Positions 802 to 43,047 of a DNA stretch of 64,000 nt are shown here, one piece after another. The position numbers and the translations under genes are program-made. The stretch covers positions 4,448,001 to 4,512,000 of the forward strand of contig OZ223209.1 of NCBI GenBank assembly GCA_965140415.1. The letters are read 5' to 3'. This stretch comes from Myxococcota bacterium (GTDB taxonomy: Bacteria; Myxococcota_A; SURF-8). Each line of letters opens with the position of its first letter. Position 1 is the stretch's first letter. The notes under the pieces are model-generated. The model saw only the letters and a list, made by a program, of their open reading frames with translations, searched no databases and was not told the origin of the DNA.

Positions 802-3800
802 CTAATCGCAGGGATCGTCTTTATCCTTTTTGTCATTATCCTTATCTTTGTCTTTTCCGCTGACCATGTCCCAGAAACCTTCTACGTTTTTCATGACTTT
901 GCGGAAAGCCGGGCTCTTGTCCAGGAAGGTGACCGAGGCGATCTTGCGCATGCCGTGCGAGCCGTTGTGGCGGGCGTCGCCGCGCTTGTATCCGCTCAGT
1001 CCATCATACATCTGCCAGGCGGTGCCTGCCGGTCCCATGGCCGTTTGCATACCACCTTTGATCTGACCACCCGCAAAACTGGCCGCATTACCGGCTCCAC
1101 CTTTCAGTCCAAGCGGATCGCTGCATTGATACGGTTTGCCGTCACAGTACATGTAAGGTTCCAGCTTCAACTGCCAAACCGGATCGCGGCTGATGAACTG
1201 CCCGATTTCGGGATCGTAATAGCGGCTGCGCATGTAGTACAACCCGATTTCTTCCAACCATAACGCACCGGCAAAACGACGCGGCTGATCCGCTATCGCT
1301 CCGCTGGAGGCCAGCAGACGACCATAGGGATCGTAGCGATACCGCGCGACGCGATTACCGCTGTTGTTGAAGAGCGCACGCACGCTGCCGTTTGGATCGA
1401 TGAGCGCGTAATAGTTTGTATTTCCCTGCCGGATAACCGCCACGCCATCCAAACCCAGTGACGGCATATAGCTTCGAATCACATCACCGTTGTCGTCGAA
1501 TTCCGCCAACAGGACGTAATCGATCCACTGATAGCTGCGACTGCTGCCGTCCACATCGACGCGACTCAGCCGCTGCAAAGGATCGTAGGACAAGACAACC
1601 GTACTGTATGGCGACGCGGCGCTTTGATCGGTATATTTCTGCACCTGTAACAACTGCCCGATGGCATTGAATTCGTAGACCCAGCGCTCATTGCTGTTCT
1701 GATCGATGCGCTCTTTTCTTGCTCCGCTATCGGAGTAGCTGTAGTCGGCCAGATCGGTGCTCGTGACGCGCCAGTCGTCATCGTAAACGAAAGCACCGGC
1801 ATACGAAGATTGCTGGATGCGCCCGCCGTCGTCGTAAGCAAAGGTAACGGTTTCCGGCCCGGCCTGACTGGTGATGCGGCCATTGGCGTCGTATTGGAAA
1901 GCCAAGGTATCCAACGCCTGGGCATCGGATTCAATGCGCTTCGGCTCCCGATTTCCATTCTTGTAAGTATAGGTCAGATATCCGCTGTTGGCGTAGCTGG
2001 ACCAGCTCAAGTAGTCCACGCGGCGAGCGGCGTCCAGCGTGAGATATTCGGAAAGCACCCAGTCGCCGTTGCTATTGGAAATGTCGATGGAAGATAATTG
2101 TCCATATTCCACAACTGCGCGCACTTCCACGCCATCACCGGAGATCGTCTGATCGGTATCGCCATAGCCGCCGTGACTGAAATCCCAATGGGTATTGAAG
2201 CCGGTGTCGAGGCTCTGAATCTGCCCCGTTTCCGCATTGTAGGGAGAATTGAAGCTGGTGACTTGCCCGCTTGCTTTATGCGTGACGGTTTCGCTGACCG
2301 TGTGGTTTTCTTCGCCGCTGTAGTCGCGCGTCCATTCGATGCGATATTCCGGCGATTCCGCCAGCACCAGGTGGTGCCGGTCATTGTATTGATAGGTGGT
2401 GGTTGCACCATCAAGTGTCATACCGGTCAACAGATTGTTTTGATCGTAGCTATAACCAACCTGCTTGCCTGCGGCGTCGGTAACATTGGAAAGAAGCCGG
2501 TTGCCATTGTAGTTGTACTGGTCGGAGTGCCCCAGCGGCGTGGTGACGCCGCCGAGATTGCCGTCCGCCAGAATTTGAGAGGACCAGTCGTTGCCAAAGG
2601 GATCGGTGATGGTTTCCAGCAGATCCCGGCCCGACGTTTCACAGCCGTCGCAGGTCGCAGAGCGAGCGAGGGCGGCGGAAAACACAGACCCACCCGGCTC
2701 GGTGTAGGAGGTCATGACGTTGTTGTGGCTGTAGCCGTATTGGAACTGGCGACCGGCGGTATCCGTAAGTTGCGTGAGGTTTCCTGCTGCGTCGCGCTGC
2801 ATCACGATGTCGTAACCGAGCGGATCGGTGATATTGGTAATGTTACCGAACGCATCCGATGTCATGCTGTAGGTTTCGCCGCTGCTATCTTCCAAATCGG
2901 TCAACTGGCCATCGTCATCATAGTAGAAATAGGTGCTTTCGCCGTTGCAGTAATACTCGGTGTAATCGTCTTCCTCGTAGACACTGCAATATTCACTGCG
3001 GAAGTGATGCTCCTCTTCGTTCCACTCCTCATCGTAGGTGGAATTAGAAACTTCAACACCGTAGAGTTCCAGATGCACCAGGCGTCCCAGAGGATCGCGG
3101 GTCGCCTGGCTGATCTCTTGCTCCCCCTTGCGAACGGTGGCCGTGATCTGTCCGTTGAGAGGGTTATATGCACGGTTGATCTGTAGCTCATCACCATTTA
3201 GTCGATAACGGTCCGGCTGACCATTCAAGGCGTAATGAGTTTCATGCTTGTGGCCTTCGCCATCGATATAAGTGGCCCAGCAGTCGGCGCAGATGCCATC
3301 GGGTTGGGCGGCTTGCAATAAGCTGGTGAAAGAGCGAGTCTCACCGGTGTCCAGGCTGATTTGCGAGATGCTTCCAATGGTATCCCACTGATAGTCGATT
3401 TCTCCCGCGCCGCCGCTGCGTCCGGTCATGTGACCACTCTCGTCGTACTCGAACAGGGTTTCGTTTCCGTCCGCGTCACTGATGCGGGTCAACTGACCAT
3501 CGGCATCGACGGTGACCATGCGCGTGCGTCCCGCCGGATCGGTGATGCCGCTCAAGTATCCATTAGTATAACTGAATGTGGTTTCTTTTCCGAAACGGCT
3601 GGTGTAGCTGCTCAAGCGACCATCGGCATAACTGTATGTAGCCTGACGGCCTTTGCTGTCGGTGAGGTTGGTCAACTGCCCCTGGGCGTTGAAGTAGCGT
3701 GTTTCCCCTGCTCCGCTCATTCTGTAACCGCTGCCATCGGATTCGATGCGCAATGGCAGATCGGAAAAGATGCCGACCGAGTAATCACCGGGCACGAGCG

Positions 3801-6435
3801 AGAAGCGATAGTCATCGTTGCTGTAGGCGGCATAGAGCACCTCGCCTTGCGTATCGAACCCCACGCCCTCTATGATCTGATTTCCGAATTGGGTGACTTG
3901 TTCGAAACGGGTGTTTGCCAGTACGGACAGGATTCCTTGAGGCGAGATCCGAATCACTTTTTCGCCGGAGAGAATATAACTGTCGCCTTTGGGACCGCGT
4001 CGCATCAAAACGCGACTGTCATCGACAAAGGCTTCTTCCTTCATCACCACGCTTTCGTTCAATCCGGCGATATCGAAGCGACGCAACAGGTCTTCGGAGT
4101 AGAACAGGTAGTATATGGCGTGCTCGGCCTCATCGTAGGCCATCGTGGCGGGAATCTGGAATTCGGTCAGTTGCATCAACGGACTGGCTAAAAAAGTCGG
4201 TTCTGCGGTTGAAATATCCACACGGATCATCAGGGGGCGCGTGGAGAAGCTGCCATCTTCACCGTATACGATGCCTACACCCATCATCCAGATGTAGCCG
4301 TTTTTGTCGGCGATCATACCGGCTTCTGGATAGAGCACGTCGATGTTCGTCAGTTCGCCATCCAATTGGCTCATGACCTGTTGCATCATGTAGGTTTCGC
4401 CGATTGTGGAGAGCAACTCAATAGTATTTGGGTAGCTGATCCGATGTAACGCGGCATCGGAATCGACCGCCAGGATATCCTCGCCGTAGGGAATCAGATC
4501 GTAAACATCCAGGCCATCGGTTTCGAGAAGTTCGACCTGCCCCGCATTTTGCAGTGAATCGGCAATATAGATTTCCCCATCTTCATTGAGCAGGTACAGG
4601 TGCCCCTGGCTGTCGAATTCGATCGATACCAGTTTCTGACCGATGTCGTCGGGCAGATCCAGGCCCTCGGTAGTAGGGAGACCGGTCATAAAGACTCTCG
4701 GGCGACGGTCGCCGCGTCGCCACAACCCTAGCCCCAGTTGGTCGTTGAATTGCAACGATTCCTGCACGCTGATTTCCCAGCCTGTACCGAAGGGATTGTC
4801 GGCAGGACTATCCACGATGGCCGGAACGGCTTTGCGCACGGAAAATGGCAGCGCTTCTCGCGTGGGAACGCCGGAATCTTCCAGACCGCCGCCGCCGAAT
4901 ACGGAGGCGGACATGTAGGTGGAACGCTCGAACTTGGTGATTTCTACCGCCGCCGGAACGATACCGTCGGCTACCGTTGTGCCATCCGGCGTTTTGTTCT
5001 TAAAGCGCGCAGCGATCAGAAACTCTCCACCTTCACTTGCGACGGTAGACAATTCCTGGCGATTTCCGGCAAGATCCACCGTGGCACTGATGCGCTCGAT
5101 GCCGTCGGTGCTGTTAGCGTCGATGGGCACCGCAACGTCGATCTCACCCGCCGCACGACCGCTGTTGTACATCAAATGCAGGGTGCTCTGCTCGTTATCT
5201 TCCCTGTAGCTGCTGGCAGGATGATAAAGGGAGAGCTGGCCGCTGATATCGTCTACGATAGAGGAACCGCGCGTTCCCTTTTCGCAGTCGTCCTTGTCGT
5301 TGTTACCGTTACTGGCCTGATCGCGCGGATCGACCGGTGCGTTTAGATCGTATGGTGAAAAGTGGTTGGTCGTAAACTCCAGCCACTGACCATCTTCGGA
5401 AACCACCGCCATGGTGCTCGGTTCCCAGGCACCTTTATCGCGATTGTAATAGCCGACCGGAACGCTGTATCCCGGCGGGAAGCCGTTGACGTTCTCCTGC
5501 CGGATGACGACCGGTTGCTCGAACCGCACACCCTCTGGCGAGGCTTCAAAGGCCTGCGTCCATCCGCTGGAATCGGGAAGCTGACCGGGCAGGCTGCGAT
5601 ACTCCGGAAAACTGATGGCCGAGACTTCGACCTCGCGCTTAACCGCATTTCCCGTCGCTTCAATGGCGATATCTCCAACACTGTTTTCCAACGCGCCACC
5701 GCTTTCGGGACTGAAAGTCGCGGTTTTACTGTCGGTCTGAACCAGATAGGCCGGGGTAAGCGAGTGATGCCGACCGGATTCCGCCGTAACCCAACGCTGG
5801 GCCAGCGTATAGCCTTCGTGCTCCAGCGTGATCAACGTGCGACCGGCTGGCACGGGCAGGGAAAATTGACCGGATGCATCACTGGTAGCCACGCCGCTGA
5901 CATTGCGCACGAAGACCTTGACACCCGAGAGCGGCACCTCGCTGCCTTCCGCAAAAACCGAACCGTGCACCGTAGCGGCATTCGCCATACTCTGGATACC
6001 GGTTTCCGCATACGTTACCGAAACGGATTCCGATATGGTTTCAAAACCGTTTCCATCTTTTACGGATACCCGAATGCTGTTTTCGCCCTCTTCCATCGGA
6101 ACGTAGCGCCGATACTTGCCGGATGAAAGCTCGGTAGCCGGATAGTAGCGTTCGCCGTTGGCGATCCAGGCATCGATGGGAGCATCGCAGTCCGTTACCG
6201 AAAAGACAACGAGTAATTCTTTTTCGTTGGTCTGATCGGGTAGATCCTCTATCGTGATGCCACCGAAACAGGGGCCTCCGGGACGCTCATCGCTGTAGTC
6301 GCCATCAACACCGTCGCCATCGGCGTTATTGTCTCCTCCTCCACCACAACCAGGCGCAGCCCAGATCATGAAAAAAGTGAACGTGAAAAGCAGAGCAGCG
6401 AAACGCCGTGAAAATGTAGTCATTATCAACCCCAC
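802..6435 (-). CDS. Teneurin-like RHS/YD-repeat lipoprotein with RHS core and short C-terminal extension
   Basis: Signal peptide with lipobox-like APGC; carboxypeptidase-regulatory-like domain (GSVF...PLSGVKV...TSDASGQFSL); propeller-like middle; many YD repeats; RHS core YYMRSRYYDPEIGQFISRDP...DPLG. Confidence 0.85.
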   Translation of the reverse strand: MGLIMTTFSRRFAALLFTFTFFMIWAAPGCGGGGDNNADGDGVDGDYSDERPGGPCFGGITIEDLPDQTNEKELLVVFSVTDCDAPIDAWIANGERYYPATELSSGKYRRYVPMEEGENSIRVSVKDGNGFETISESVSVTYAETGIQSMANAATVHGSVFAEGSEVPLSGVKVFVRNVSGVATSDASGQFSLPVPAGRTLITLEHEGYTLAQRWVTAESGRHHSLTPAYLVQTDSKTATFSPESGGALENSVGDIAIEATGNAVKREVEVSAISFPEYRSLPGQLPDSSGWTQAFEASPEGVRFEQPVVIRQENVNGFPPGYSVPVGYYNRDKGAWEPSTMAVVSEDGQWLEFTTNHFSPYDLNAPVDPRDQASNGNNDKDDCEKGTRGSSIVDDISGQLSLYHPASSYREDNEQSTLHLMYNSGRAAGEIDVAVPIDANSTDGIERISATVDLAGNRQELSTVASEGGEFLIAARFKNKTPDGTTVADGIVPAAVEITKFERSTYMSASVFGGGGLEDSGVPTREALPFSVRKAVPAIVDSPADNPFGTGWEISVQESLQFNDQLGLGLWRRGDRRPRVFMTGLPTTEGLDLPDDIGQKLVSIEFDSQGHLYLLNEDGEIYIADSLQNAGQVELLETDGLDVYDLIPYGEDILAVDSDAALHRISYPNTIELLSTIGETYMMQQVMSQLDGELTNIDVLYPEAGMIADKNGYIWMMGVGIVYGEDGSFSTRPLMIRVDISTAEPTFLASPLMQLTEFQIPATMAYDEAEHAIYYLFYSEDLLRRFDIAGLNESVVMKEEAFVDDSRVLMRRGPKGDSYILSGEKVIRISPQGILSVLANTRFEQVTQFGNQIIEGVGFDTQGEVLYAAYSNDDYRFSLVPGDYSVGIFSDLPLRIESDGSGYRMSGAGETRYFNAQGQLTNLTDSKGRQATYSYADGRLSSYTSRFGKETTFSYTNGYLSGITDPAGRTRMVTVDADGQLTRISDADGNETLFEYDESGHMTGRSGGAGEIDYQWDTIGSISQISLDTGETRSFTSLLQAAQPDGICADCWATYIDGEGHKHETHYALNGQPDRYRLNGDELQINRAYNPLNGQITATVRKGEQEISQATRDPLGRLVHLELYGVEVSNSTYDEEWNEEEHHFRSEYCSVYEEDDYTEYYCNGESTYFYYDDDGQLTDLEDSSGETYSMTSDAFGNITNITDPLGYDIVMQRDAAGNLTQLTDTAGRQFQYGYSHNNVMTSYTEPGGSVFSAALARSATCDGCETSGRDLLETITDPFGNDWSSQILADGNLGGVTTPLGHSDQYNYNGNRLLSNVTDAAGKQVGYSYDQNNLLTGMTLDGATTTYQYNDRHHLVLAESPEYRIEWTRDYSGEENHTVSETVTHKASGQVTSFNSPYNAETGQIQSLDTGFNTHWDFSHGGYGDTDQTISGDGVEVRAVVEYGQLSSIDISNSNGDWVLSEYLTLDAARRVDYLSWSSYANSGYLTYTYKNGNREPKRIESDAQALDTLAFQYDANGRITSQAGPETVTFAYDDGGRIQQSSYAGAFVYDDDWRVTSTDLADYSYSDSGARKERIDQNSNERWVYEFNAIGQLLQVQKYTDQSAASPYSTVVLSYDPLQRLSRVDVDGSSRSYQWIDYVLLAEFDDNGDVIRSYMPSLGLDGVAVIRQGNTNYYALIDPNGSVRALFNNSGNRVARYRYDPYGRLLASSGAIADQPRRFAGALWLEEIGLYYMRSRYYDPEIGQFISRDPVWQLKLEPYMYCDGKPYQCSDPLGLKGGAGNAASFAGGQIKGGMQTAMGPAGTAWQMYDGLSGYKRGDARHNGSHGMRKIASVTFLDKSPAFRKVMKNVEGFWDMVSGKDKDKDNDKKDKDDPCD

Positions 6436-32871: not shown

Positions 32872-33237
32872 GGACTATCTCCCTCCAAAGTCAAGAACCT
32901 TACGTGCGACTATCCTAGCCTAAGTCGTCGATTGGAGCAACAGGTATTGGAAATTCCATCTTGTTGGGCAATACCATGAATTGGGTGAATGACAAGAATA
33001 TTTATGTTATTATTTAAGCGGTGAGATTGAATCGCTCATTTTCAACTCGAATCCTGACTCGTCAAATGGTCCACACAACGGGTGGCGCGGCAAGTATAAG
33101 TTTGTGTAACTTAGTCCGCTTTTCAAACAATGCAGCCACCAGTCTGCCACAACTCAGAAAACTCATAACTTACCTGCCAACAGAAGCGGCGGAGCGGTTT
33201 GTCCTGAATCGGCTCAAAGAAGCCGGTGGAGGGGCAT

Positions 33238-33283
33238 AAAATGGAAAACTCCAGCGCATCTCATGAGAAAGTTGCGCTGGAGT
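33238..33283 (-). terminator. Original terminator of the tRNA operon, displaced by island insertion
   Basis: 11-bp stem ACTCCAGCGCA (33248-33258)/TGCGCTGGAGT (33273-33283) with a minus-strand U-rich tract, immediately outside the left att core. Confidence 0.75.
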
Positions 33284-33285
33284 AT

Positions 33286-33297
33286 AACAGTTGGCGA
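33286..33297. repeat. Attachment-site core, tRNA-distal junction
   Basis: AACAGTTGGCGA, identical to 42857-42868. Confidence 0.85.
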
Positions 33298-33434
33298 ACG
33301 ACAAGACGCTGACTTGGAAACAGATTGACGACTGGTTAGACAGCATGGAGATGCTCAAGGCATCTCTTTTCGAAGCCAAAAACTGCCATGATTTCTGGCA
33401 CCTAATCACCGAACAACAGGAAGCGAGGGGATAA
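33297..33434 (+). other. Detached in-frame 3' segment of the serine integrase gene (45 codons plus stop)
   Basis: Joining at the repeat gives ...CYEQLA|NDKTLTWKQIDDWLDSMEMLKASLFEAKNCHDFWHLITEQQEARG* with no internal stop. Confidence 0.75.
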
Positions 33435-33736
33435 AGCAATGGACAAGTGTGTCCTGGAGATAGAAACGGACACCTGAATTGAAAAACCGCCCTTGCAGGG
33501 GCGGCTTACAAAACATCAACCCCGGGTATGGAGATGACGTCATGGATATCTGTAGTGTAACCAACCGCATTGACCTCGTCAAGATTTTCATCGCGCCCAT
33601 TTCCACATCCGCTTCAAGACCCCCTTGCAGCCCAGTATGGCTTCGGAGATCACCGGACTCCTGAACCATGGTGTCACCCGTCACCCATAAATAGGCGGGG
33701 TATATAGAAACTTTTAACGATTCTGGAGGTCATGCC

Positions 33737-34432
33737 ATGGAGATTAAGAGAAAATCAGCGTTCGACTTTCCGTCCGACAACGAAGCCCGCGCAGATGAAC
33801 TGCGCCACATCGGTTTTGACAGACTCGCAAATATGATTGCTGACTGTAAGCCCGGCTGGTTCTGCAGACAGCGACTCTGTCCGACCTGCGGCCCGTTCTA
33901 CGCAGCGATCAATGCGGGCAAAGTCAGAGTGAAGGTACTGGAGATGCGGTGGCCGCACACCTATATGCTGACACTCCGGTCGAAGCATCTATGGGATTTG
34001 AAAGCGACCGTCGAGGAGTTTCGAGCCTGTCTTCGCAAGTTGAGAGTCCGGAAATACTGGAAACAGCATGTGCGTTCGGGAGCCGGTGCCATTGAGGTAA
34101 AGTTATCGAACGACCGCAGGGCCTGGGTGGTTCATAGCCACTTTGTTCTCGATGTCCTCGATCCCACCTTCGATGTCGAACTCATCGATGAATATTGGCG
34201 GAAATACACCAATGGCCGTGGTTCTTTCATGCGGCAGACCGGTAACCGGGTCGTCATGGAAAACCTGACCGCACTGGCCTCCTACAACGCGAAGGCCGAT
34301 ACCTGGTGCCCACCTCCCGGCGCCTTGTATCCGGACGAACTGCGGCATCTCATTCGTGCGATTAAAGGGAAGCAGCTGCCAATTCTCTTCCCTTCTCGAC
34401 GGAAGAGGAAGCCCCACTCGTCGGAGAAGTAA
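33737..34432 (+). CDS. Rolling-circle replication initiator (HUH, Rep_1/pC194-like)
   Basis: Cys cluster CRQRLCPTC, motif I MLTL, GAIEVK, HUH motif HSHFVL, motif III YNAK; GGAGG RBS. Confidence 0.8.
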   Translation: MEIKRKSAFDFPSDNEARADELRHIGFDRLANMIADCKPGWFCRQRLCPTCGPFYAAINAGKVRVKVLEMRWPHTYMLTLRSKHLWDLKATVEEFRACLRKLRVRKYWKQHVRSGAGAIEVKLSNDRRAWVVHSHFVLDVLDPTFDVELIDEYWRKYTNGRGSFMRQTGNRVVMENLTALASYNAKADTWCPPPGALYPDELRHLIRAIKGKQLPILFPSRRKRKPHSSEK

Positions 34433-34730
34433 ACGTGCGGCCAACTGGCCTGTTCCACTATCCGGCCAGCGCGATTAGTGGGGTATTCACGATTCGTATG
34501 TGCGTTACCGCGCCAGTTCTTCGCAGCGCGGTAACGCACTACGGAACGGTGAAACGCCGCTGTGAGCGATGGAGTACGTGAACAGCGACTACGCCCTCTG
34601 AGAAAGCCATTGACATGCGACAAAAAAGTGTCCAAATCGGAGGAGGTAGGTTCATGAATTTGGAGGAAATCCAACTTAACACCACGATAACACTAACAAT
34701 ATCTCATATTCTGAAACCCTCACGCATTTG

Positions 34731-34784
34731 CTGCGACGTCGGTTTTTCAACTGCGACGTCGGCACAATCACCCAGCGACGTCGG
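34731..34784. repeat. Three iteron-like copies of C(T/A)GCGACGTCGG
   Basis: Copies at 34731, 34751 and 34773 with palindromic core CGACGTCG. Confidence 0.7.
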
Positions 34785-35395
34785 TGCTCGCATTCTCCTA
34801 GCCCTATCCGGTTTTCGATTCCAGCCCCATAGGGGACCCAGACCCCGCCCAGCATTAAAACCATTCGGGGTGCTGGCCACCGACAATTACGACAGCCGTC
34901 TTGTTGGGTGCTATTCGTCAAACAGAATCATGTTTTTACCACTCGGGTTCGTTCGTTAATACCTCGACCTGCGTCAATTTGGTTGGCGTATTTCTCTATG
35001 GCGACCAGCGGAAAAAACGTTCGGGCCAGGAAAATTGGGGTTCCAATATTTTTCGGGGTGTTTTTCGGGAACCGTTCGGGTCATCCGGGACAACTATGCA
35101 AGATATCAATGGATTTCGCTATAAGGATGATAGTGAAAGTGGTTGCCCTTTCACTGATCCTGGCCGGTCGACAGCTGAACTTTTCCAGGTTGTCGCGTTC
35201 GCCCGGACGTCCCGGATCAGGGTGATTCGCTCCTCGTAGGTCTTATACCACAACGCTTACCTGAATTTTAGGACTGCGACCGACCGCTCGTCTTTCGCTA
35301 GCCGGACCGATACCCAAACCACCGCCCACATGGCGGCGACGCCGCGTGGGACGGGCGAGGTCTCCGTGTGCGTCGAACACGACAAGGAGGCCCCG

Positions 35396-36091
35396 ATGGA
35401 AACCTGTATCCAACCCCAACAACCCAGCCAGCCCCTTCCGATGTCCCACGAGCAAATCAACACTACCTTCACCACCATGATCGCCGACGGCATCTTCAAT
35501 CCGATCAAGCGCCACCTGGGCGATGCGTTCGATGCCGAAGACAGATTCCAGGAAGCCCTGTGCATCATCTACGATGATTACCGCAGCGCCGCCGAGCGTG
35601 GCAAGCCGACAGATAGAGCCGCCCTGGTCTTTGGTTTGAAGTTGAAAGCCTTCGACGTGACCCACCGCTTCACCCGAACCGGCCACGGTCGCCGCAGGGA
35701 CGTGATGGGCGCGCCGGCCTGTGTCCTCGACGGGATTCAGGTCTTGCGCTTCGATGGCCTGGTCGAAGACGAAGACGGACCCTACGACGATCCCGGTGTG
35801 ACCCGGGATAACCCCATGAGCTTCGTCAACGAACTTTCCATGCGGCAGACGGCGGATGTCGAGGACCGGATCAACTCCGCTCTCGACCTTGACGCCTGGT
35901 TGGCCGACTTGGACCCGACCGACAGTGACATCCTGCAAGGCCGCATGGAAGGCCGCGCCGGAACGGAGATCGCCGAAATGGTCGGCATGAGCATGACCTA
36001 TTTCTATCAGCGCTTGAAGACGCTCGGTCGGAAGCTGGCCAAGGACGCCGGGATCATGGCCTACCTCGAACCCCAGCCGGGAGTCGCGTAG
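35396..36091 (+). CDS. Sigma-70 region 4-like HTH protein (ECF-sigma-like, mobile-element type)
   Basis: AAGGAGG RBS; DAEDRFQEA region-2-like segment; C-terminal LDAWLADLDP...GTEIAEMVGMS HTH. Confidence 0.65.
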   Translation: METCIQPQQPSQPLPMSHEQINTTFTTMIADGIFNPIKRHLGDAFDAEDRFQEALCIIYDDYRSAAERGKPTDRAALVFGLKLKAFDVTHRFTRTGHGRRRDVMGAPACVLDGIQVLRFDGLVEDEDGPYDDPGVTRDNPMSFVNELSMRQTADVEDRINSALDLDAWLADLDPTDSDILQGRMEGRAGTEIAEMVGMSMTYFYQRLKTLGRKLAKDAGIMAYLEPQPGVA

Positions 36092-36376
36092 TCGATGCGC
36101 CGCAACACCATCGACATCGTCGTCTGGATCATCCTGAAAAGCCTGAAAAACTGGCTCTGCAAGCACCGAAAATGACATTCCCCACCATGCCGCCCTGCCA
36201 CATCGCCCGCCGCACCATCCCCAGCCGCGCCCACGCGGCGGAAGAGGCCCTTTGGCTTCTTCTTTTAGCACAATTCGTATCTTGATTACATTTGAGTAAA
36301 CCGCCGAATTGTGCTAGCTTTTCCGCATTCGGGAAAGGAACTATTCTGTCAGAGACCGCTACGATCGTGAGGAGAT

Positions 36377-39300
36377 TTGGGTATGAAGCAGGCTGTTATC
36401 GTTGGGCTGATATGTTTGTTGCCATTGTTTAGTGCCGGTTGCTCGGGTTCTTCCGATGCAGGGGACGTCGCCAAAGCGCTTGAAGACCGCCTGACCGATG
36501 CCCTGGACTTCGAGGGCGGGTCGGCGGAAGACGGTGAGCCGCCCGAAGGCGAGAACACGCCTGATGCGCCGCAGATTTCGGGAATAGATGCACCGGATAC
36601 ACTTCATCCGGATGTTCCATTCGTGGTGCGGCTTTCGACTGACTATGCAGAGCCGCAGAACGTCGATAAAGCGATTGTCCATGTGGTGGGCGCTACGAAG
36701 TATCTGGTTGTGACGACCCCGCTGGTTGAAGCAAGTCATGGCTGGGTGATGAATCTTGCCGGTGTTTTGGGCGAGGAAATGTCCCTGGCGGGCGAGAGTT
36801 TCACGCTGGAATACGCGCTTCAAACCAGAGGCGGCGTAACCGGCGCGTACAAGAGAAAAGAGTTGGATATCCCTGAAGAGGACGCCGAACCGGACTGCGA
36901 CTCCGGTCCCTGCTGCAACGGCGGTGAATGGATCGAGGACGGCGGTGCGTGCACCGAGGGCGATGCTTTCGCTTGCACGCGGGATGCCTGCACGGCAAAT
37001 CATGCTTGCGAATCGACGCTGGCAGCGGACCGATGCCTGATTGACGATACCTGCTACACCTCCGGCGATGTGAAGCCGGACAACGAATGCCAGACCTGTC
37101 AGCCGGAGACGGCGACGGATATCTTCAGCGCGGTGGCCGACGGGACGGCCTGCGATGCGGGGAGTGGTGAAGGGTCAGGCCAGTGCCAGACGGGCGAGTG
37201 TGTCTTTTCCGATACCTTCATGAACGGTCGCTTGCATGAGTCGCTTGAGCCGGAGCAGGCACAGGAAGTGGCGGGTGATCCGCCTGCGGGTGGGGATGAT
37301 CCGCAAAGCTTCCCGCAGATTACCGATTTATCGGCCCCGGCGACACTCTATCCTGGGTCGAGTTTCGAAGTGACGCTGTTTACCGATTTCGCCACTCCGG
37401 ATGCGATCGATGGAGCGTTGCTGCAGGTTTCCGGTGCGCCGGGTTATTATCGGATTACGGGCGAAACAACGGCGTTGGGTGATCGCGCCTATCTCACGAT
37501 CAGCGGCCTGCTACTTGATATCGACGATCTACCGGAGCACAGCTTTACTCTGGCCTTTGCGCTGACGGCAGGCGAGGGCGTGGTGGGCGGCTATGCAGAG
37601 GCAACGATACAGTTGATCCCTGCTGCGCCGCAATGCGAGTCCGGCCCGTGCTGCAACGGTGGCGGATTGATGCCGAACGGGTCGTTTTGTCTGGATGACG
37701 ACCCCTGTACCTATGACGACGCCTGCAACGAGCAGGGAGCCTGTGCGGGCACGCCGATCACCTGTGAGGATGACCCATCGATCTGCGGGGTCAATCGCGC
37801 CTGCAACGGAACGGCCACTTGCGACGAAAGCTATCCAGGTAATGAAACAGAATGTGACGATGGTGAACCCTGCACATATGATGACGTCTGCGACGGTGGG
37901 GGCGGGTGCGCGGGCACAAGCTACGGTTGCAACGACCATGGGGACTGTGACGGGGAGGGCGCATGCGAGTGTGACGATGGTTACGATGGCGCAAGCTGCG
38001 ATCAGTGCGCCGATGGATACGAAGGTTACCCGGACTGCGTTTCGATTCAGAATTTTCTTGACAGCTTGGCTGCATCAGCGAGTCAAAGTATCCGTGAGAT
38101 CGATGGGGTCGCCGCAATGGATGGATCGGAGGAGGAAGTTATTGGTGGTCTGGCGACAGTTAAAGCCATTGGGTATGCGTACTGTGAACCAGACAACTAC
38201 TATGAGGGACCTGAAGCCGACATGTCGCTACCTCTGTGTCGTTATGGCTGTGATCAGCTGCCTGCCCTGGAGATCACATTGACCGATCAAGCCGCTGGAC
38301 TCGTCGATGTTTCCCTTCAGGCATCTGCGTTTTACGTGGATTCGTATTGGGAAATACCGACGAGGTGTGATTGCTATAGTTTGACAACCACTTCATCAGT
38401 CTCCGCCACCGGAACATTGGTTGATTTTCCAGACAATCCAAAGCTCTATCGTAATGCGGGTACAAATATGTCAGAGATGGGAAGTTTCGAGTTAGATTGC
38501 GAGGGTGTATGCGGAACATTGGTACCCAGTTTGTCTGGAGTCATGCAAGGACTGTGGAACGGTATTCTCGACGATGGCTTGCAACAATTGCTTGACGCAC
38601 TTGTTTTTACTCCAGTGTGTGAGGAAGGCCAGATCGAATACCCGGTCGGCTCCTTTACTTGCATCGACGACCCTTGTGATCCAGATCCGTGCAACGAACA
38701 TGGAAGCTGCGACAATTCAAGCGGGGAGGCGGTGTGCACTTGTGACAATGATAATATGAACGAAGATTGCTCAGCCTGTGCAGACGGTTTCATCGGCTAT
38801 CCGGATTGTATAGCTATCGGCACGTTTATTCCCATCACGGCCGGCGCCTTCTGGATGGGCTCGCCGGATGGAAGCTGCCCTGGCGGCTATCCAGGAGATT
38901 GCTCCGAAGCCGAGCCGGGGCGGTATTCGGATGAAGAACTTCACGAAGTGACATTGACCTATGATTTCGAGTTGCAGGCGTATGAGTTGACACAGGGGGA
39001 ATGGACGGCGTTGATGACGTGGAATCCGAGCAGCTTCAGCACCTGTGATGGCGGCGATGGTAGCACGTGTCCGGTGGAAAGCGTCTCCTGGTTTGATGTG
39101 TTGGCCTACGCGAACGAGTTATCGTCGGATGCGGGTCTGACGCCCTGTTATGTGTTTTCGAACGTGACGTGCGAGGAAGGCGGGAGCGTGGGCGCGGACT
39201 ACATGCAGTGCATGAACGCGATTCAGGGCGGTATTGATGATGCAACGATTACTCTGGCGGGCGGCGCGGTAAAGCCTCAGGATTGCGAAGGGTATCGGCT

Positions 39301-39748
39301 CCCCACTGAGGCGGAATGGGAGTATGCGATACGGGCCGGGAATGAATACACGGCGTTCTACCAGAGCGATGGGAACGATGGGACGATCAATGCTTCGACG
39401 ATGAGCACGTGTAGTTCATTGGACAGTAATCTGGATCAGATCGCGGTTTACTGTGCGAACGATCCCAACGGCACGGCTCCTGTGGGCACAAAGGAGGCGA
39501 ACGCGTGGGGCTTGTACGATATGAGCGGCAACGTGTATGACTGGGTCTGGGACTGGTATCAGGACTCTTATGAGAACGATGTGGCAACTGACCCGACAGG
39601 TCCGACGACACCAGGCTCGGGCCGCGTCCTACGTGGCGGCGTCTGGGGCGGCGACGCGCGGTACTGCCGGTCGGCGGGCCGCGGCAACCGCGCTCCCGGC
39701 GTTCGCAACGACCGCCTTGGCGCCCGCCTCTCCAGGTCTAGCCCTTGA
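36377..39748 (+). CDS. Modular surface lipoprotein with duplicated beta domain, Cys/EGF-like repeats and C-terminal FGE-sulfatase (C-type lectin fold) domain; probable DGR target
   Basis: Lipobox SAGC; FWMGSP, PVESVSWFD, GYRLPTEAEWEYA, NAWGLYDMSGNV.DW, RVLRGG.W...RSA.R.......LGARL. Confidence 0.88.
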   Translation: MGMKQAVIVGLICLLPLFSAGCSGSSDAGDVAKALEDRLTDALDFEGGSAEDGEPPEGENTPDAPQISGIDAPDTLHPDVPFVVRLSTDYAEPQNVDKAIVHVVGATKYLVVTTPLVEASHGWVMNLAGVLGEEMSLAGESFTLEYALQTRGGVTGAYKRKELDIPEEDAEPDCDSGPCCNGGEWIEDGGACTEGDAFACTRDACTANHACESTLAADRCLIDDTCYTSGDVKPDNECQTCQPETATDIFSAVADGTACDAGSGEGSGQCQTGECVFSDTFMNGRLHESLEPEQAQEVAGDPPAGGDDPQSFPQITDLSAPATLYPGSSFEVTLFTDFATPDAIDGALLQVSGAPGYYRITGETTALGDRAYLTISGLLLDIDDLPEHSFTLAFALTAGEGVVGGYAEATIQLIPAAPQCESGPCCNGGGLMPNGSFCLDDDPCTYDDACNEQGACAGTPITCEDDPSICGVNRACNGTATCDESYPGNETECDDGEPCTYDDVCDGGGGCAGTSYGCNDHGDCDGEGACECDDGYDGASCDQCADGYEGYPDCVSIQNFLDSLAASASQSIREIDGVAAMDGSEEEVIGGLATVKAIGYAYCEPDNYYEGPEADMSLPLCRYGCDQLPALEITLTDQAAGLVDVSLQASAFYVDSYWEIPTRCDCYSLTTTSSVSATGTLVDFPDNPKLYRNAGTNMSEMGSFELDCEGVCGTLVPSLSGVMQGLWNGILDDGLQQLLDALVFTPVCEEGQIEYPVGSFTCIDDPCDPDPCNEHGSCDNSSGEAVCTCDNDNMNEDCSACADGFIGYPDCIAIGTFIPITAGAFWMGSPDGSCPGGYPGDCSEAEPGRYSDEELHEVTLTYDFELQAYELTQGEWTALMTWNPSSFSTCDGGDGSTCPVESVSWFDVLAYANELSSDAGLTPCYVFSNVTCEEGGSVGADYMQCMNAIQGGIDDATITLAGGAVKPQDCEGYRLPTEAEWEYAIRAGNEYTAFYQSDGNDGTINASTMSTCSSLDSNLDQIAVYCANDPNGTAPVGTKEANAWGLYDMSGNVYDWVWDWYQDSYENDVATDPTGPTTPGSGRVLRGGVWGGDARYCRSAGRGNRAPGVRNDRLGARLSRSSP
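39614..39745 (+). other. Putative DGR variable region (VR) with GC-rich 3' end
   Basis: Non-conserved positions are almost all NNC/NNT codons (GGC, GTC, GGC GGC GAC, TAC, GGC, GGC AAC CGC, GTT, AAC GAC CGC), as expected from mutagenised AAC/AAT codons. Confidence 0.7.
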
Positions 39749-39758
39749 CCCCTTTCGC

Positions 39759-39920
39759 CCTTTGCCCTTTGGGCAAAGGCTATAATGGGTGCACGATAGT
39801 GCGACCGAATTGGTCCGAGCGGGAACGGAGAGAGCAAGCGAGCCGAAGCGCAAGCCGGCGAAGCGAGCGAACGAAGTGAAGCTCGGGCCGGGGAGTCCAG
39901 AGGGGCTTTAGCCCCTTTGG
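39759..39920 (+). other. Short-loop hairpins downstream of the VR (cruciform candidates)
   Basis: CCTTTGCCC-TTT-GGGCAAAGG (39759-39779) and CCAGAGGGGC-TTTA-GCCCCTTTGG (39897-39920). Confidence 0.6.
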
Positions 39921-40583
39921 TGGGTCCAGGGCCCTTCGGCAAGCTCAGGATAAACTCCGACCGGGTCGCCATAGGTTCCGGACCCGCGCCTGACGGCGAA
40001 CACTGTCAGGACAAATACACCCACCCCGGCGGCGGCAAGTAGGCGGTTTTTGACAACTGCTCGAACGTGGCCGCCGGGGACTATTACGAACTCGGACTAC
40101 AGCGGAGTCTCGCTCAGGCATGACGACGAAGGGGTGATGGGAACCGGGTGCATGGTTCACGAAGTACACCGGCCTCTCGTTGTTCGTCCAGGTAAGAAGG
40201 TGGAACCACCCGGAGTTCGACAACCCGGAGACCGGAGACCATGAAGGCATAAAACCGGAGTGAATCCCGTAAAATGCGGTAATTGTTTATGAATTTCGGC
40301 TTTCACGATGAACTTTTGGCTTGACAAAACGGCCAAATGTAAAATAGGCTTACGCTCAGTTCATTCTCATGCCGCGATTTGTAAGGGTAAAGACACAGAA
40401 AAACGACCATGTACCGCGAAGTGAAAGAAACCGGCTGGTATAAGATAGCCAAGTAACCAAGCACTAGAATTCGCGAACGGTCAACCCCGTCACCCACCGC
40501 ATGAATGCAACCTTGGGAACCCGCCGAACATAATCGCATACATTCCAACTTGAGCAGTCCTGATCGAAGGTCAGGGGCTGCGA

Positions 40584-40853
40584 GTGTATGTTCGGAGGAA
40601 CCCAATGGAGGCCCTTACAAAGAAGCGCGGTCTGAAGCCGCCTACCATCACCACAAAAACCCGTAACCTGACCATCGTGGGGTATATCGTCCCACAGGGT
40701 GAACTACCCCCAAACCCCCGTCATCCCGACCCATACATCCCTGTTGAACAACGGCACGACCGGTTCCTGAAGGAACTGGCCGGTGCGTTGGCGGAGATTG
40801 TCCCGGCCAAGGAAGAGGACGACGGAAAGTATTACCGACCAGGGCGCGCATGA
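40584..40853 (+). CDS. Small hypothetical protein of the element
   Basis: GGAGG RBS before an internal ATG (MEAL...); first of three closely spaced ORFs before the integrase. Confidence 0.55.
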   Translation: MYVRRNPMEALTKKRGLKPPTITTKTRNLTIVGYIVPQGELPPNPRHPDPYIPVEQRHDRFLKELAGALAEIVPAKEEDDGKYYRPGRA

Positions 40854-40863
40854 GTAGGATGTC

Positions 40864-41178
40864 ATGCTTAGCCTTGATGGTTGCAGAAAGTACCTCGAAG
40901 AAGAGGATGCCGCGGTCTCGGACGAGGAACTCGCTGAAAAACGAGACTCAATGTATCAGCTGGCTCGTCTGCTATTGTCCGCACTCCCGGTTCCCGGTCA
41001 TACGTCCGAGGCTCCAGTGGTATCCGATCATTTCGAGGAAATCTTACGATCCTTGTCACCAGCGAAGCAGGGCGCGCTGAAGGACCGTGCGGCTTTCCTG
41101 GTGGCTGAAGTCGGCCTCCCGCCCGATGAAGCGGAGCGGGTGGCCATAACCGAGTACATCAAAGAACAGGAGAATTGA
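40864..41178 (+). CDS. Small hypothetical protein of the element
   Basis: 104 aa; C-terminal DRAA...GLPPDEAERVA motif resembles small phage/island proteins. Confidence 0.65.
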   Translation: MLSLDGCRKYLEEEDAAVSDEELAEKRDSMYQLARLLLSALPVPGHTSEAPVVSDHFEEILRSLSPAKQGALKDRAAFLVAEVGLPPDEAERVAITEYIKEQEN

Positions 41179-41180
41179 TC

Positions 41181-41372
41181 ATGACAAACCGTTCATCCAT
41201 GAATCCGGAAGGTAACAAGGTAGGCAAGGGAACAGCTCCCATGTCGAGCAAGGTTGAGGTTGCTATGAAAAAGGTCCAGGATGCTGTCGCTCAGTTGGAG
41301 TTCGACATCCGGTCTGATAGAATAAAGGCGGGACTCGCTGCGAAACGGGCCCGTGAGAAAGGGAACTCATAA
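41181..41372 (+). CDS. 63-aa protein resembling serine-recombinase helix E
   Basis: AGGAG RBS; AMKKVQDAVAQLEFDIRSDRIKAGL aligns without gaps to AMENMAATFAQLDNDLRSDRTKTGM of the adjacent integrase. Confidence 0.65.
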   Translation: MTNRSSMNPEGNKVGKGTAPMSSKVEVAMKKVQDAVAQLEFDIRSDRIKAGLAAKRAREKGNS

Positions 41373-41391
41373 GCATCTGAGGAACTGACCC

Positions 41392-42903
41392 ATGGAACGA
41401 GCCGTTATCTACTGCCGGGTATCATCGAAGGAACAGGTGGACAATTACAGTCTTACCACCCAGGAACGCCTGTGCCGGGAATACTGCGAGCGCAACGGGT
41501 ACGAGGTGGACAAGGTCTTCGTAGAGGAAGGCGAATCGGCTAAGACCGCCAACCGTCGTTCCCTCCTTCGCATGCTGGACTACTGCGGCAAGGCGAAGGG
41601 CCGTATTAGTGTTCTGGTCGTCTACCAACTGAGTCGCTTTGCACGCCAAGCCAAAGATCATCACGCAGTGAAGGCCAAGCTGGCCAGCTTCGGAATCACC
41701 CTTCGATCAGCAACAGAACCCATCGACGATACTCCGATGGGGAAGGCGATGGAAAACATGGCCGCCACCTTCGCCCAGCTTGATAACGACCTACGTTCCG
41801 ACCGGACCAAAACCGGCATGCTCGAAGCTGCCATGAATGGCCGGTGGGTGCACCAAGCCCCAATCGGCTACCTCAATGGAAAGAAGGGAGGACCGAGCCT
41901 TGTTCATGATCCTGAGCGTGCCGACCTTGTCCGCAAAGGCTTCGAGTTGTTCGCCACACGCATGTACTCCAAGCAGCAGGTGGTGGACAAGATCAATGCC
42001 CTCGGCTTCACAAGCCCCAAGGGCGGCAAGCTCAACCCGCAGACCTTCGGGCGCATGCTCCGCAACCCGATCTATGCTGGTCGTGTGATCCTGGAGAGCT
42101 TCCAGATCGACACCAAGGGCGACTTTGAGCCCATCGTACCCGAAGACCTCTTTCGGCAGGTACAGGCGATTCTGGACGGTCGGACGTACCAGAATGTCCC
42201 CCACCACCGGAACAACAAGGACTTCCCTCTCCGGCGCTTTACCCGTTGCGCAAAGTGCGGAACACCACTCACGGGATCGTGGAGTACGGGCCGTGGGAAG
42301 AAGTATGCCTACTACCGTTGCCGGAATACCAAGTGCAAGGCCGTCAACATCCGCAAGGAGAACATGGAAGAACTGTTCCTGGAGCAGATCAACCGCATCA
42401 AGCCCAGGATGGAGTATATGAGGCTCTTCCGCGAGATCGTAAAGGATGTCTACCGGGAGCGGATGTCGGAAGGGACGGAGCACAATAAACGGCTGCAAGC
42501 CAACCTGCGAAAGGTGAAGCAGAAAAAAAGCCGCCTTCTCGATCTGCGCATCGAGGGAGATATCGACCATGCCTCTTACCAGAGTAAGAAGATAGAACTG
42601 GATGCCGAGATCGAGCTTGTGGAGCGGGAACTTGGCCGCCTGAACTCCGAAACGATGGATATCGACTCGGCACTGGACTTCGCCGAGCGTATCGTCATGA
42701 ATGCGGGTAAGCTGTGGGAAGCACTGGAGTTTGATGAAAGGGTGAAACTACAGGAGCTCTTATTCACAGGTGGGATCGACTTCGACGGCGAAAAATTTGG
42801 AACCATAAAAACAAACAGCATTTTCAGTATGTTAACCAAAAATGCTGCCTGCTATGAACAGTTGGCGACCCCAGCGGGAATTGAACCCGCGTCGCCGGCG
42901 TGA
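41392..42903 (+). CDS. Large serine recombinase (integrase); ORF ends antisense within tRNA-Glu
   Basis: AVIYCRVSSKEQ catalytic serine motif, SRFAR, recombinase domain (LRNPIYAG), zinc ribbon CAKCG...YYRC....C, coiled coil. Confidence 0.95.
   Translation: MERAVIYCRVSSKEQVDNYSLTTQERLCREYCERNGYEVDKVFVEEGESAKTANRRSLLRMLDYCGKAKGRISVLVVYQLSRFARQAKDHHAVKAKLASFGITLRSATEPIDDTPMGKAMENMAATFAQLDNDLRSDRTKTGMLEAAMNGRWVHQAPIGYLNGKKGGPSLVHDPERADLVRKGFELFATRMYSKQQVVDKINALGFTSPKGGKLNPQTFGRMLRNPIYAGRVILESFQIDTKGDFEPIVPEDLFRQVQAILDGRTYQNVPHHRNNKDFPLRRFTRCAKCGTPLTGSWSTGRGKKYAYYRCRNTKCKAVNIRKENMEELFLEQINRIKPRMEYMRLFREIVKDVYRERMSEGTEHNKRLQANLRKVKQKKSRLLDLRIEGDIDHASYQSKKIELDAEIELVERELGRLNSETMDIDSALDFAERIVMNAGKLWEALEFDERVKLQELLFTGGIDFDGEKFGTIKTNSIFSMLTKNAACYEQLATPAGIEPASPA
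42857..42868. repeat. Attachment-site core, tRNA-proximal junction
   Basis: AACAGTTGGCGA; its last 6 nt are the complement of the tRNA-Glu 3' end TCGCCA. Confidence 0.85.
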
Positions 42904-42937
42904 AAGGCCGGTGTCCTAACCCCTAGACGATGGGGTC
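42863..42937 (-). tRNA. tRNA-Glu (TTC)
   Basis: GACCCCATCGTCTAGGGGTTAGGACACCGGCCTTTCACGCCGGCGACGCGGGTTCAATTCCCGCTGGGGTCGCCA folds as a cloverleaf with encoded CCA. Confidence 0.97.
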
Positions 42938-42971: not shown

Positions 42972-43047
42972 TGGTGAGCCGGGGGCGATTCGAACGCCCG
43001 ACCGACGGATTAAAAGTCCGCTGCTCTACCAGCTGAGCTACCGGCCC
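42972..43047 (-). tRNA. tRNA-Lys (TTT)
   Basis: GGGCCGGTAGCTCAGCTGGTAGAGCAGCGGACTTTTAATCCGTCGGTCGGGCGTTCGAATCGCCCCCGGCTCACCA cloverleaf. Confidence 0.97.

Follow-up and report, generated by a model that had tools for sequence, protein, structure and literature searches.

A 64,000-nt window of contig OZ223209.1 from a Myxococcota bacterium (the whole stretch of DNA that was analysed, to which the coordinates below refer) contains a genomic island at the 3' end of a tRNA-Glu gene, together with a large serine integrase whose gene crosses one of the island boundaries. The island is delimited by a 12-bp repeat, AACAGTTGGCGA, present in exactly two copies on the + strand of the window, at 33286-33297 and 42857-42868; two or more copies occurred in none of 100 dinucleotide shuffles of the window. 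The island between the two copies measures 9,571 bp. As tRNA-Glu occupies positions 42863-42937, the proximal copy consists of the last 6 bp of the tRNA (...TCGCCA) and 6 bp beyond. The open reading frame (ORF) of the integrase crosses this proximal copy and its stop lies 40 nt inside the antisense tRNA-Glu. The features that define the island, including its attachment (att) cores, are the following:

33232..33285, - strand: displaced native tRNA-Glu terminator, hairpin and T-run, now 9.6 kb from the tRNA (RNA fold; empty site in G004)
33286..33297, + strand: attL core, distal copy of the 12-bp repeat (repeat match; homology to the G001 island begins at 33283)
33297..33434, + strand: detached integrase tail, 45 codons and a stop in the integrase frame, with a conserved W-x-x-I-x-x-W-L helix motif (frame, tail model, substitution ratio against G001)
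41392..42903, + strand: large serine integrase in its integrated (attR) form, 503 amino acids (aa), the last 11 residues read from antisense tRNA-Glu (ORF, Pfam, alignment)
42857..42868, + strand: attR core, proximal copy of the 12-bp repeat (repeat match)
42863..42937, - strand: tRNA-Glu(ttc), the integration target, 3' end regenerated exactly (ARAGORN, Rfam agrees; empty site in G004)

The left edge of the island has support independent of the repeat, since homology to a related island in another Myxococcota genome (G001) begins at window position 33283. On the other side of the distal repeat, the stretch 33232-33291 of the - strand folds with an energy of -23.2 kcal/mol (z = -6.5) and is followed by a T-run. 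In an island-free genome of the same family (G004), tRNA-Glu is followed directly by ACTGTTAT and then by a hairpin terminator, and the same 8 bases adjoin the distal repeat copy of the window when read in the direction of the tRNA. These observations agree with the initial annotation of the locus, which had described the 12-bp repeat inside the integrase ORF at the CCA end of tRNA-Glu and 9571 bp upstream, an integrated protein ending with 11 residues read antisense through the tRNA, and a displaced tRNA terminator beside the distal repeat; it had also anticipated that relatives lacking the island would join the tRNA to that terminator. In sequencing data (three runs of one study), the whole integrated stretch was contained in one assembled contig, which may be the source of the window, and a contig from a second run crossed attL, also in the integrated form. 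The circular junction and the empty site were not seen in the Logan contigs of these runs; since assembly drops rare variants, the contigs are uninformative on excision either way.

The integrase contains only serine-recombinase domains. The resolvase catalytic domain (PF00239, E = 3e-35) spans residues 4-152, with R9 and S11 conserved in at least 90% of the family alignment. It is accompanied by the Recombinase domain, or DNA-binding domain 1 (DBD1; PF07508, E = 1.3e-13), and by a zinc ribbon, or DBD2 (PF13408 Zn_ribbon_recom, E = 4.4e-11), the cysteines of which (C286, C289, C310 and C315) are invariant in 10 sequences. The catalytic domain with its serine, DBD1 and the four-cysteine zinc ribbon assign the protein, as judged from its sequence, to the large serine recombinases; no tyrosine recombinase domain was found in it. 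A profile of the integrase matches the solved chains of SprA, A118 and TP901-1 among PDB sequences, and the profile alignment runs through the coiled-coil region with SprA (53-420 against chain residues 68-462) and A118 (172-421). The domain architecture is that of the phage large serine integrases that have separate directionality factors (SPbeta SprA/SprB, A118, phiC31, Bxb1 and TP901-1), but the window integrase (P0001) stands apart from them in sequence, as no match above 28% identity was found among the matches listed from annotated phage and plasmid records. Three more large serine recombinase ORFs of 524-597 aa, 26-31% identical to the window integrase, are encoded in the same genome (L002, L003 and L004, on G000:C1 near 4.06 Mb, 1.16 Mb and 4.09 Mb, respectively).

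When the distal repeat is read in the frame of the integrase, the sequence stays open for 45 codons (33297-33431) up to a stop at 33432-33434. The detached part thus amounts to 45 of about 537 codons and leaves the catalytic and DNA-binding domains intact. No second copy of this tail was found elsewhere in the same genome. The existence of a stop-free 45-residue tail at the far end of the island had been noticed before, and comparison with G001 now supports its coding nature. The two tails differ by 8 synonymous and 6 non-synonymous changes, giving a ratio of non-synonymous to synonymous differences per site (pN/pS) of 0.16 when read in the integrase frame; the remaining frames give 0.79 and 1.75, and the integrase body 0.08. 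The position of the tail stop is kept, with TAA in one and TGA in the other. Forty-four aligned tails yield the consensus xSWNQ(I/L)xxWLRx(L/V)xxLRxAA, in which the first W is invariant. Among 50 distinct tail DNAs, the codons of the hydrophobic residues have an entropy of only 0.00-0.28 at position 2, while positions 1 and 3 are highly variable and six Leu codons are used. Fixation of the second codon position combined with free synonymous change points to selection on an amphipathic helix. By these measures, the tail is shown to be real coding sequence under purifying selection at the protein level.

The arrangement is shared by a large family. Nearly all of the 12 relatives returned by a word-indexed protein search end with ...[S/T]PxG[F/I]EPxxP, a sequence that results from translating a tRNA T-arm in antisense. 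A wider scan gave 302 relatives in genome contigs, at least 488 in metagenome contigs and 22 in viral contigs. A set of 163 loci totalling 1.9 Mb was analysed (80 from genomes, 80 from metagenomes, 2 from viral contigs, and the window), in which some contigs are duplicated between collections. In 91 of the 163 loci, which hold 82 distinct integrases, the stop codon of the integrase ORF falls within a tRNA gene on the opposite strand. The targets are the tRNAs for Glu (47 loci), Ala (19), Lys (14), Arg (5), Val (3), His, Met and Pro (1 each), and in 87 of the 91 cases the overlap with the tRNA is 1 modulo 3, that is, in the same frame.

In nine integrases with an exact upstream repeat of the tRNA-end core, the in-frame peptide beyond that core shares the tail motif. 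A tail model built from these nine tails was searched at E ≤ 0.01 against 58,796 six-frame fragments of the 163 loci. All of its 57 matches are on the integrase strand, 55 being upstream of the integrase and 2 inside the ORF. For the 32 upstream matches in tRNA-ending loci, the best core match is in frame in 30. In 24 of the 32, at least 8 bp are shared and start no more than 6 bp from the TGG of the tRNA 3' end (20 of these start at the TGG or 1 bp ahead of it). Every one of the 24 is in frame; random windows reached 8 bp or more in 25 of 800 trials. The expectation that related islands would have a conserved, in-frame tail at their far ends is therefore borne out. The shared cores measure 12 bp in the window and 8-16 bp at the 24 related sites (where at least 8 bp are shared), usually overlap TGG(C/T)G at the tRNA 3' end, and imply islands of 3.6-11 kb in the related loci.

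On a quick maximum-likelihood tree of the 82 integrases, the tRNA targets are clustered, with 11 changes of target against a mean of 36.9 after shuffling (none of 200 shuffles was as low). Glu targeting is paraphyletic, with Lys, Ala and the other targets nested within it; long branches, including that of the window integrase, are placed with uncertainty. According to contig titles, the hosts belong to the Acidobacteriota, Myxococcota, Verrucomicrobiota, Nitrospirota, Planctomycetota and other phyla. Taken as phylogenetic evidence, these sequences show the layout with attP inside the integrase gene to be ancestral to a large clade that spans many phyla and several tRNA targets.

The remaining features of the island and its surroundings are:

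33435..33504, no strand assigned: conserved stretch after the tail with a G+C-rich hairpin (about 33487-33508) (86% identity with G001 over 33283-33504)
33737..34432, + strand: candidate Rep_1-like (rolling-circle plasmid) replication protein (Pfam Rep_1, 31.4 bits, below the cut-off of 33.2)
35330..36091, + strand: 253-aa ORF with a weak sigma-70/ECF region 4 match (NCBIfam TIGR02937, 22.8 bits, below cut-off)
36377..39748, + strand: cargo, 1,123-aa cysteine-rich protein with a C-terminal FGE-sulfatase domain (Pfam PF03781, E = 3e-42)
40864..41178, + strand: small ORF of 104 aa, candidate directionality factor or regulator (family model, position upstream of the integrase)
42810..42853, - strand: predicted replacement tRNA-Glu terminator, hairpin and T-run within the integrase 3' end, antisense (terminator scan; fold)
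42972..43047, - strand: tRNA-Lys(ttt), located upstream of tRNA-Glu within a shared tRNA cluster (ARAGORN, Rfam agrees)

The related island of G001 is inserted at the tRNA-Glu gene of that genome (G001:C2:1649000-1665500) and is similar to the window in three parts only, namely the tail region (33283-33504, 86%), the small-ORF region and the integrase (92%). The cargo differs, being a 2,478-aa PAS-rich hybrid histidine kinase in G001. A Rep_1 ORF scoring 47 bits occupies the same position there, next to the tail end. The 1,123-aa cargo protein of the window has, by eye, a hydrophobic N-terminus, and contains internally repeated modules and EGF-like matches. Altogether, the stretch 33286-42868 is best explained as an integrative plasmid-like element, with a Rep_1-like gene, cargo, a small ORF and an integrase, inserted by its large serine integrase at the CCA/discriminator end of tRNA-Glu.

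The small ORF is a recurrent neighbour of the integrase. Matches to its family model are found within 1.2 kb upstream of the integrase and on the same strand in 117 of the 137 loci with enough upstream sequence, mostly at a distance of 160-550 nt. The product has 104 residues in the window and about 60 in most relatives, and carries the motif ...IS[I/L]xRCRELLG...[S/T]DxE..., to which longer versions add ERAAIMEFDGGLxRxxAER. It had no match in Pfam, PDB sequences, NCBIfam or PADLOC; against PHROGs, 4 of 26 relatives gave weak matches (best E = 1.3e-4) to families of unknown function.

Insertion of the element has separated tRNA-Glu from its terminator. Directly downstream of the tRNA, and antisense within the 3' end of the integrase gene, lies a hairpin of 19 pairs followed by a T-run (-25.2 kcal/mol, z = -6.0), which is predicted to replace the displaced terminator after insertion. 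As a family trait this was rejected, since such a hairpin was found in 1 of 82 family loci and in 60 of 1,640 control windows; it is specific to this lineage. At the second tRNA-Glu of the same genome (G000:C1:2557545-2557710), the tRNA is followed by a decayed integrase 3' end, hairpin and T-run included, which is 58% identical to integrase residues 461-503 and contains two stops. The distal flank in G001 carries a 69-bp copy of the integrase 3' end with 97% identity. Both look like relics of older insertions, with hairpins sitting where tRNA terminators would be.

Other loci hold the integrase and the tail in unusual arrangements. In a 25-kb metagenome contig (L174, integrase at 2821-4392) and a 46-kb IMG/VR contig (L181), the integrase is contiguous with its tail and no tRNA is nearby; neither context is clearly that of a free phage or plasmid. 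A search with the L174 integrase against 1.84 billion representative proteins gave 36,212 matches at E ≤ 0.001. Among the best 150 of these, 82 end with the tRNA-antisense motif and 6 with the strict tail motif; a further 16 are short and the other 46 unclassified, several of these 46 resembling, by eye, looser W-N-type tails. In L099 and L084, integrase remnants are fused to a tail in the chromosome, just upstream of another element. L070 (878-2596) and L060 (1595-3274) encode full-length large serine recombinases that share 25% identity with the window integrase and form a second subfamily; they read through a tRNA-Glu-type core into a tail. They stand just upstream of an element of the window-integrase type (P0001), which suggests that a newer element was inserted between an older integrase and the tRNA. 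That this second subfamily shares the tail is not a claim that can be made from such tandem arrays, as the tail may belong to the neighbouring element. Some loci have more than one tail stacked ahead of the same integrase, at spacings of 1-3 kb: three in L056, L058 and L077, and two in L065, L078, L093, L096 and L132. These look like fossil attL sites left by repeated insertion at the same tRNA. The stacked and contiguous chromosomal junctions would be explained by successive insertions at one tRNA, each pushing the older element outward.

With attP located inside the 3' end of the integrase gene, integration and excision exchange the C-terminus of the enzyme. In the integrated element, 11 residues encoded by the antisense strand of the tRNA gene take the place of the tail. 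The circular element, as reconstructed from the two ends of the island, is shown to encode a longer integrase, whose last 45 residues begin with the conserved predicted amphipathic helix.

The closest precedent for the layout is the tyrosine integrase of the Myxococcus phage Mx8, and also that of Mx9. According to two reports, attP of Mx8 lies inside the integrase gene, which acquires a new 3' end and the protein a new C-terminus on integration, and this was read as an activity switch (PMC6070905, PMC4383910). The window integrase resembles the IntP/IntX pair of Mx8 in having attP in its coding sequence and a C-terminus that is changed on integration, and its host is likewise from the phylum Myxococcota. 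Unlike the Mx8 enzyme, it is a large serine recombinase, with another mechanism, predicted short att sites and a predicted crossover at the CCA end of the tRNA. It is thus an integrase that works like the Mx8 IntP/IntX type without being a member of it, as the tyrosine recombinase domain is missing.

Integration of SSV1-type elements splits the integrase gene into two large parts. The window integrase differs in losing only its last 45 codons, without such a split, and in not being an archaeal tyrosine recombinase. It is similar to the integrases of these fuselloviruses of Sulfolobus in having a gene that runs past attP and in targeting a tRNA gene (PMC4383910). The initial annotation had attributed att sites inside integrase genes to the archaeal SSV1-type enzymes; these are indeed documented in that report, but the trait is not only archaeal, being found likewise in Mx8 (PMC4383910, PMC6070905). 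A third comparison is with the immunity system of mycobacteriophage BPs, in which attP is also inside a gene, and integration removes a C-terminal segment and changes the protein (PMC4557955); half of the tails of the present family end with -AA. The split gene of BPs encodes the repressor and its integrase is a tyrosine recombinase, whereas here the integrase gene itself is split and the window tail ends with -RG, so that the element is not of the BPs type.

In the favoured reading, the element described above makes two functionally different isoforms of its integrase, which would act as a switch comparable to that of Mx8; we put the probability of this reading as a whole at roughly 0.55. The two forms would differ in function as IntP and IntX do. 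The full-length form, which only the free element can make, would be the integration enzyme. The tail-less form would be the sole form available in the chromosome and would be poor at further integration, but would excise the element together with the product of the conserved small ORF as directionality factor. A role for the C-terminus in such control has a parallel in the SPbeta integrase SprA, where directionality control involves both the extreme C-terminus and the coiled-coil hinge; a residue near the C-terminus and the C-terminal helix of the directionality factor act together at the hinge between DBD2 and the coiled coil (PMC11722253). It has also been proposed that C-terminal extensions block the directionality-factor site (PMC12286644). 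A directionality or activity switch arising from the two isoforms, as first suggested in the initial annotation, is therefore plausible. That this switch is built in holds less well, as the element is not shown to lack a separate directionality factor and the conserved small ORF, present upstream in 117 of 137 loci, is a candidate; the presence of this candidate weakens the case for a purely built-in switch.

Several observations weigh against the favoured reading or parts of it. No empty site with identical flanks was found, because the synteny of the flanking genes is lost in the four relatives compared (G001, G004, G008 and G002). When attP and attB were reconstructed for 21 sites, a scan for dyad symmetry about the core gave no signal, with matches close to the 25% expected at random whichever centre was taken. 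In 14 of the 32 loci with at least 9 kb of upstream sequence the tail was not detected, perhaps because the islands extend further there or the tails have diverged more. The window tail is itself atypical, with 38 residues from the conserved W to the stop and an end in -RG instead of -AA. The integrase of G001 has an extra A in an A-run near its 3' end and stops at 488 aa, before the core, so that the full-length form could not be restored from it; decay of this copy or a homopolymer error may be the cause. Lastly, the S-W-N codons are almost invariant in the 50 tail DNAs, even at third positions. As these codons lie no more than about 30 bp from the core, a DNA constraint from the attP arm probably overlaps the coding constraint at this place. 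They may mark a DNA motif of the P' arm of attP that overlaps the coding sequence.

This last observation is also what would be expected if the switch were only a by-product of geometry, attP merely falling in the last codons, the tail DNA being conserved as the P' arm, and the two isoforms working alike. An arm is expected in just this stretch, within about 30 bp of the core. Conservation reaches about 60 nt past the core, however, in a hydrophobic, heptad-like pattern with codon position 2 fixed and synonymous change free. The low pN/pS is moreover confined to the integrase frame and the position of the stop is kept, which makes this explanation very improbable. It could be, instead, that insertion is one-way, the tail-less chromosomal integrase being inactive, excision not taking place and the lineage spreading only as a free replicating plasmid form. 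The decayed relics and stacked tails (three each in L056, L058 and L077, the integrase remnant in L084 and the relic at the second tRNA-Glu) fit this idea, as do the frameshifted integrase of G001 and the presence of Rep_1-type replication genes. Against it, 91 of 163 loci still have a chromosomal integrase ORF that continues without interruption into the tRNA, and the pN/pS of 0.08 for the integrase body between two integrated copies denotes strong purifying selection; one-way insertion is regarded as quite unlikely.

The ends of the tails suggest another possibility, a switch in protein stability. In 25 of 50 distinct tails the last residues are -AA, compared with 157 of 7,982 control reading-frame ends (2.0%); in 28 of the 50 the distance from the conserved W to the stop is exactly 18 residues, and -AA is absent from the ten commonest attR-form endings listed. 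A C-terminal -AA serves as a protease signal in other bacteria and might do so in these phyla. The free-form integrase would be short-lived owing to this degradation signal, which integration would remove, much as in the immunity of mycobacteriophage BPs, where attP is in the repressor gene and the viral form bears an ssrA-like tag (PMC4557955). The tails of the window and of G001 both end with -RG after a 20-residue extension, so that a degradation signal cannot be the function in this element, and the conserved helix is left unexplained. Protein stability is therefore an unlikely basis for the switch.

Finally, the tail might act as a latch built into the enzyme. Its helix would dock on the zinc ribbon at the coiled-coil hinge, which is the site of the directionality factor, and lock the enzyme in integration mode; loss of the tail would free that site and permit excision, either by the integrase alone or only then in response to the small-ORF product. 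The state of the gene, not the timing of factor expression, would then set the direction. Consistent with this, the full-length protein ends with the tail, a conserved amphipathic helix. In SPbeta, the factor has an essential C-terminal helix, which is lodged beside Int F532 between DBD2 and the hinge of the coiled coil (PMC11722253). Both C-terminal extensions that might block the factor site and 'an alternate solution to directionality' have been raised elsewhere (PMC12286644). The small ORF and the integrase are close neighbours on one strand, with the small ORF upstream; were they expressed together, the timing of the factor alone could not set direction. The tail, however, has no sequence similarity to any solved chain, as its profile gave nothing significant against PDB sequences, and such docking is considered doubtful. 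The broader proposal for the clade is put forward tentatively, and well short of even odds: its members may set their own direction by gene rewriting, the tail helix locking the free-form enzyme in integration and insertion deleting that helix to leave an excision-competent or factor-responsive form, so that DNA topology and not timed factor expression would decide.

To our knowledge, no characterised large serine integrase targets a tRNA gene or carries attP in its own gene. The full text of the literature that was searched contained no description of a serine integrase with either property; most subscription journals and supplements were not covered, so that this is no proof of absence. The 2014 Islander paper states that serine integrases were not known to use tRNA genes, and this is contradicted by the enzymes reported here, which target at least 8 tRNA species in many phyla. 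Integrase genes that cross attP were known before for tyrosine recombinases (Mx8, SSV); what appears to be new is the large serine recombinase version of this arrangement, found in a clade of enzymes that target tRNA genes, carry attP within their own gene and are apparently undescribed so far. For most members, gene callers report only the truncated chromosomal form (...G[F/I]EP...), and anyone who mines such gene calls for enzymes has to add back the tail encoded at the distal island end to avoid cloning the wrong protein. Among the tools for inserting DNA into genomes, large serine integrases hold a leading place, and the choice between integration and excision is an active question. Since attP lies inside the integrase gene of these elements, their free and integrated states necessarily make different enzymes, which offers a direct test of the contribution of the extreme C-terminus.

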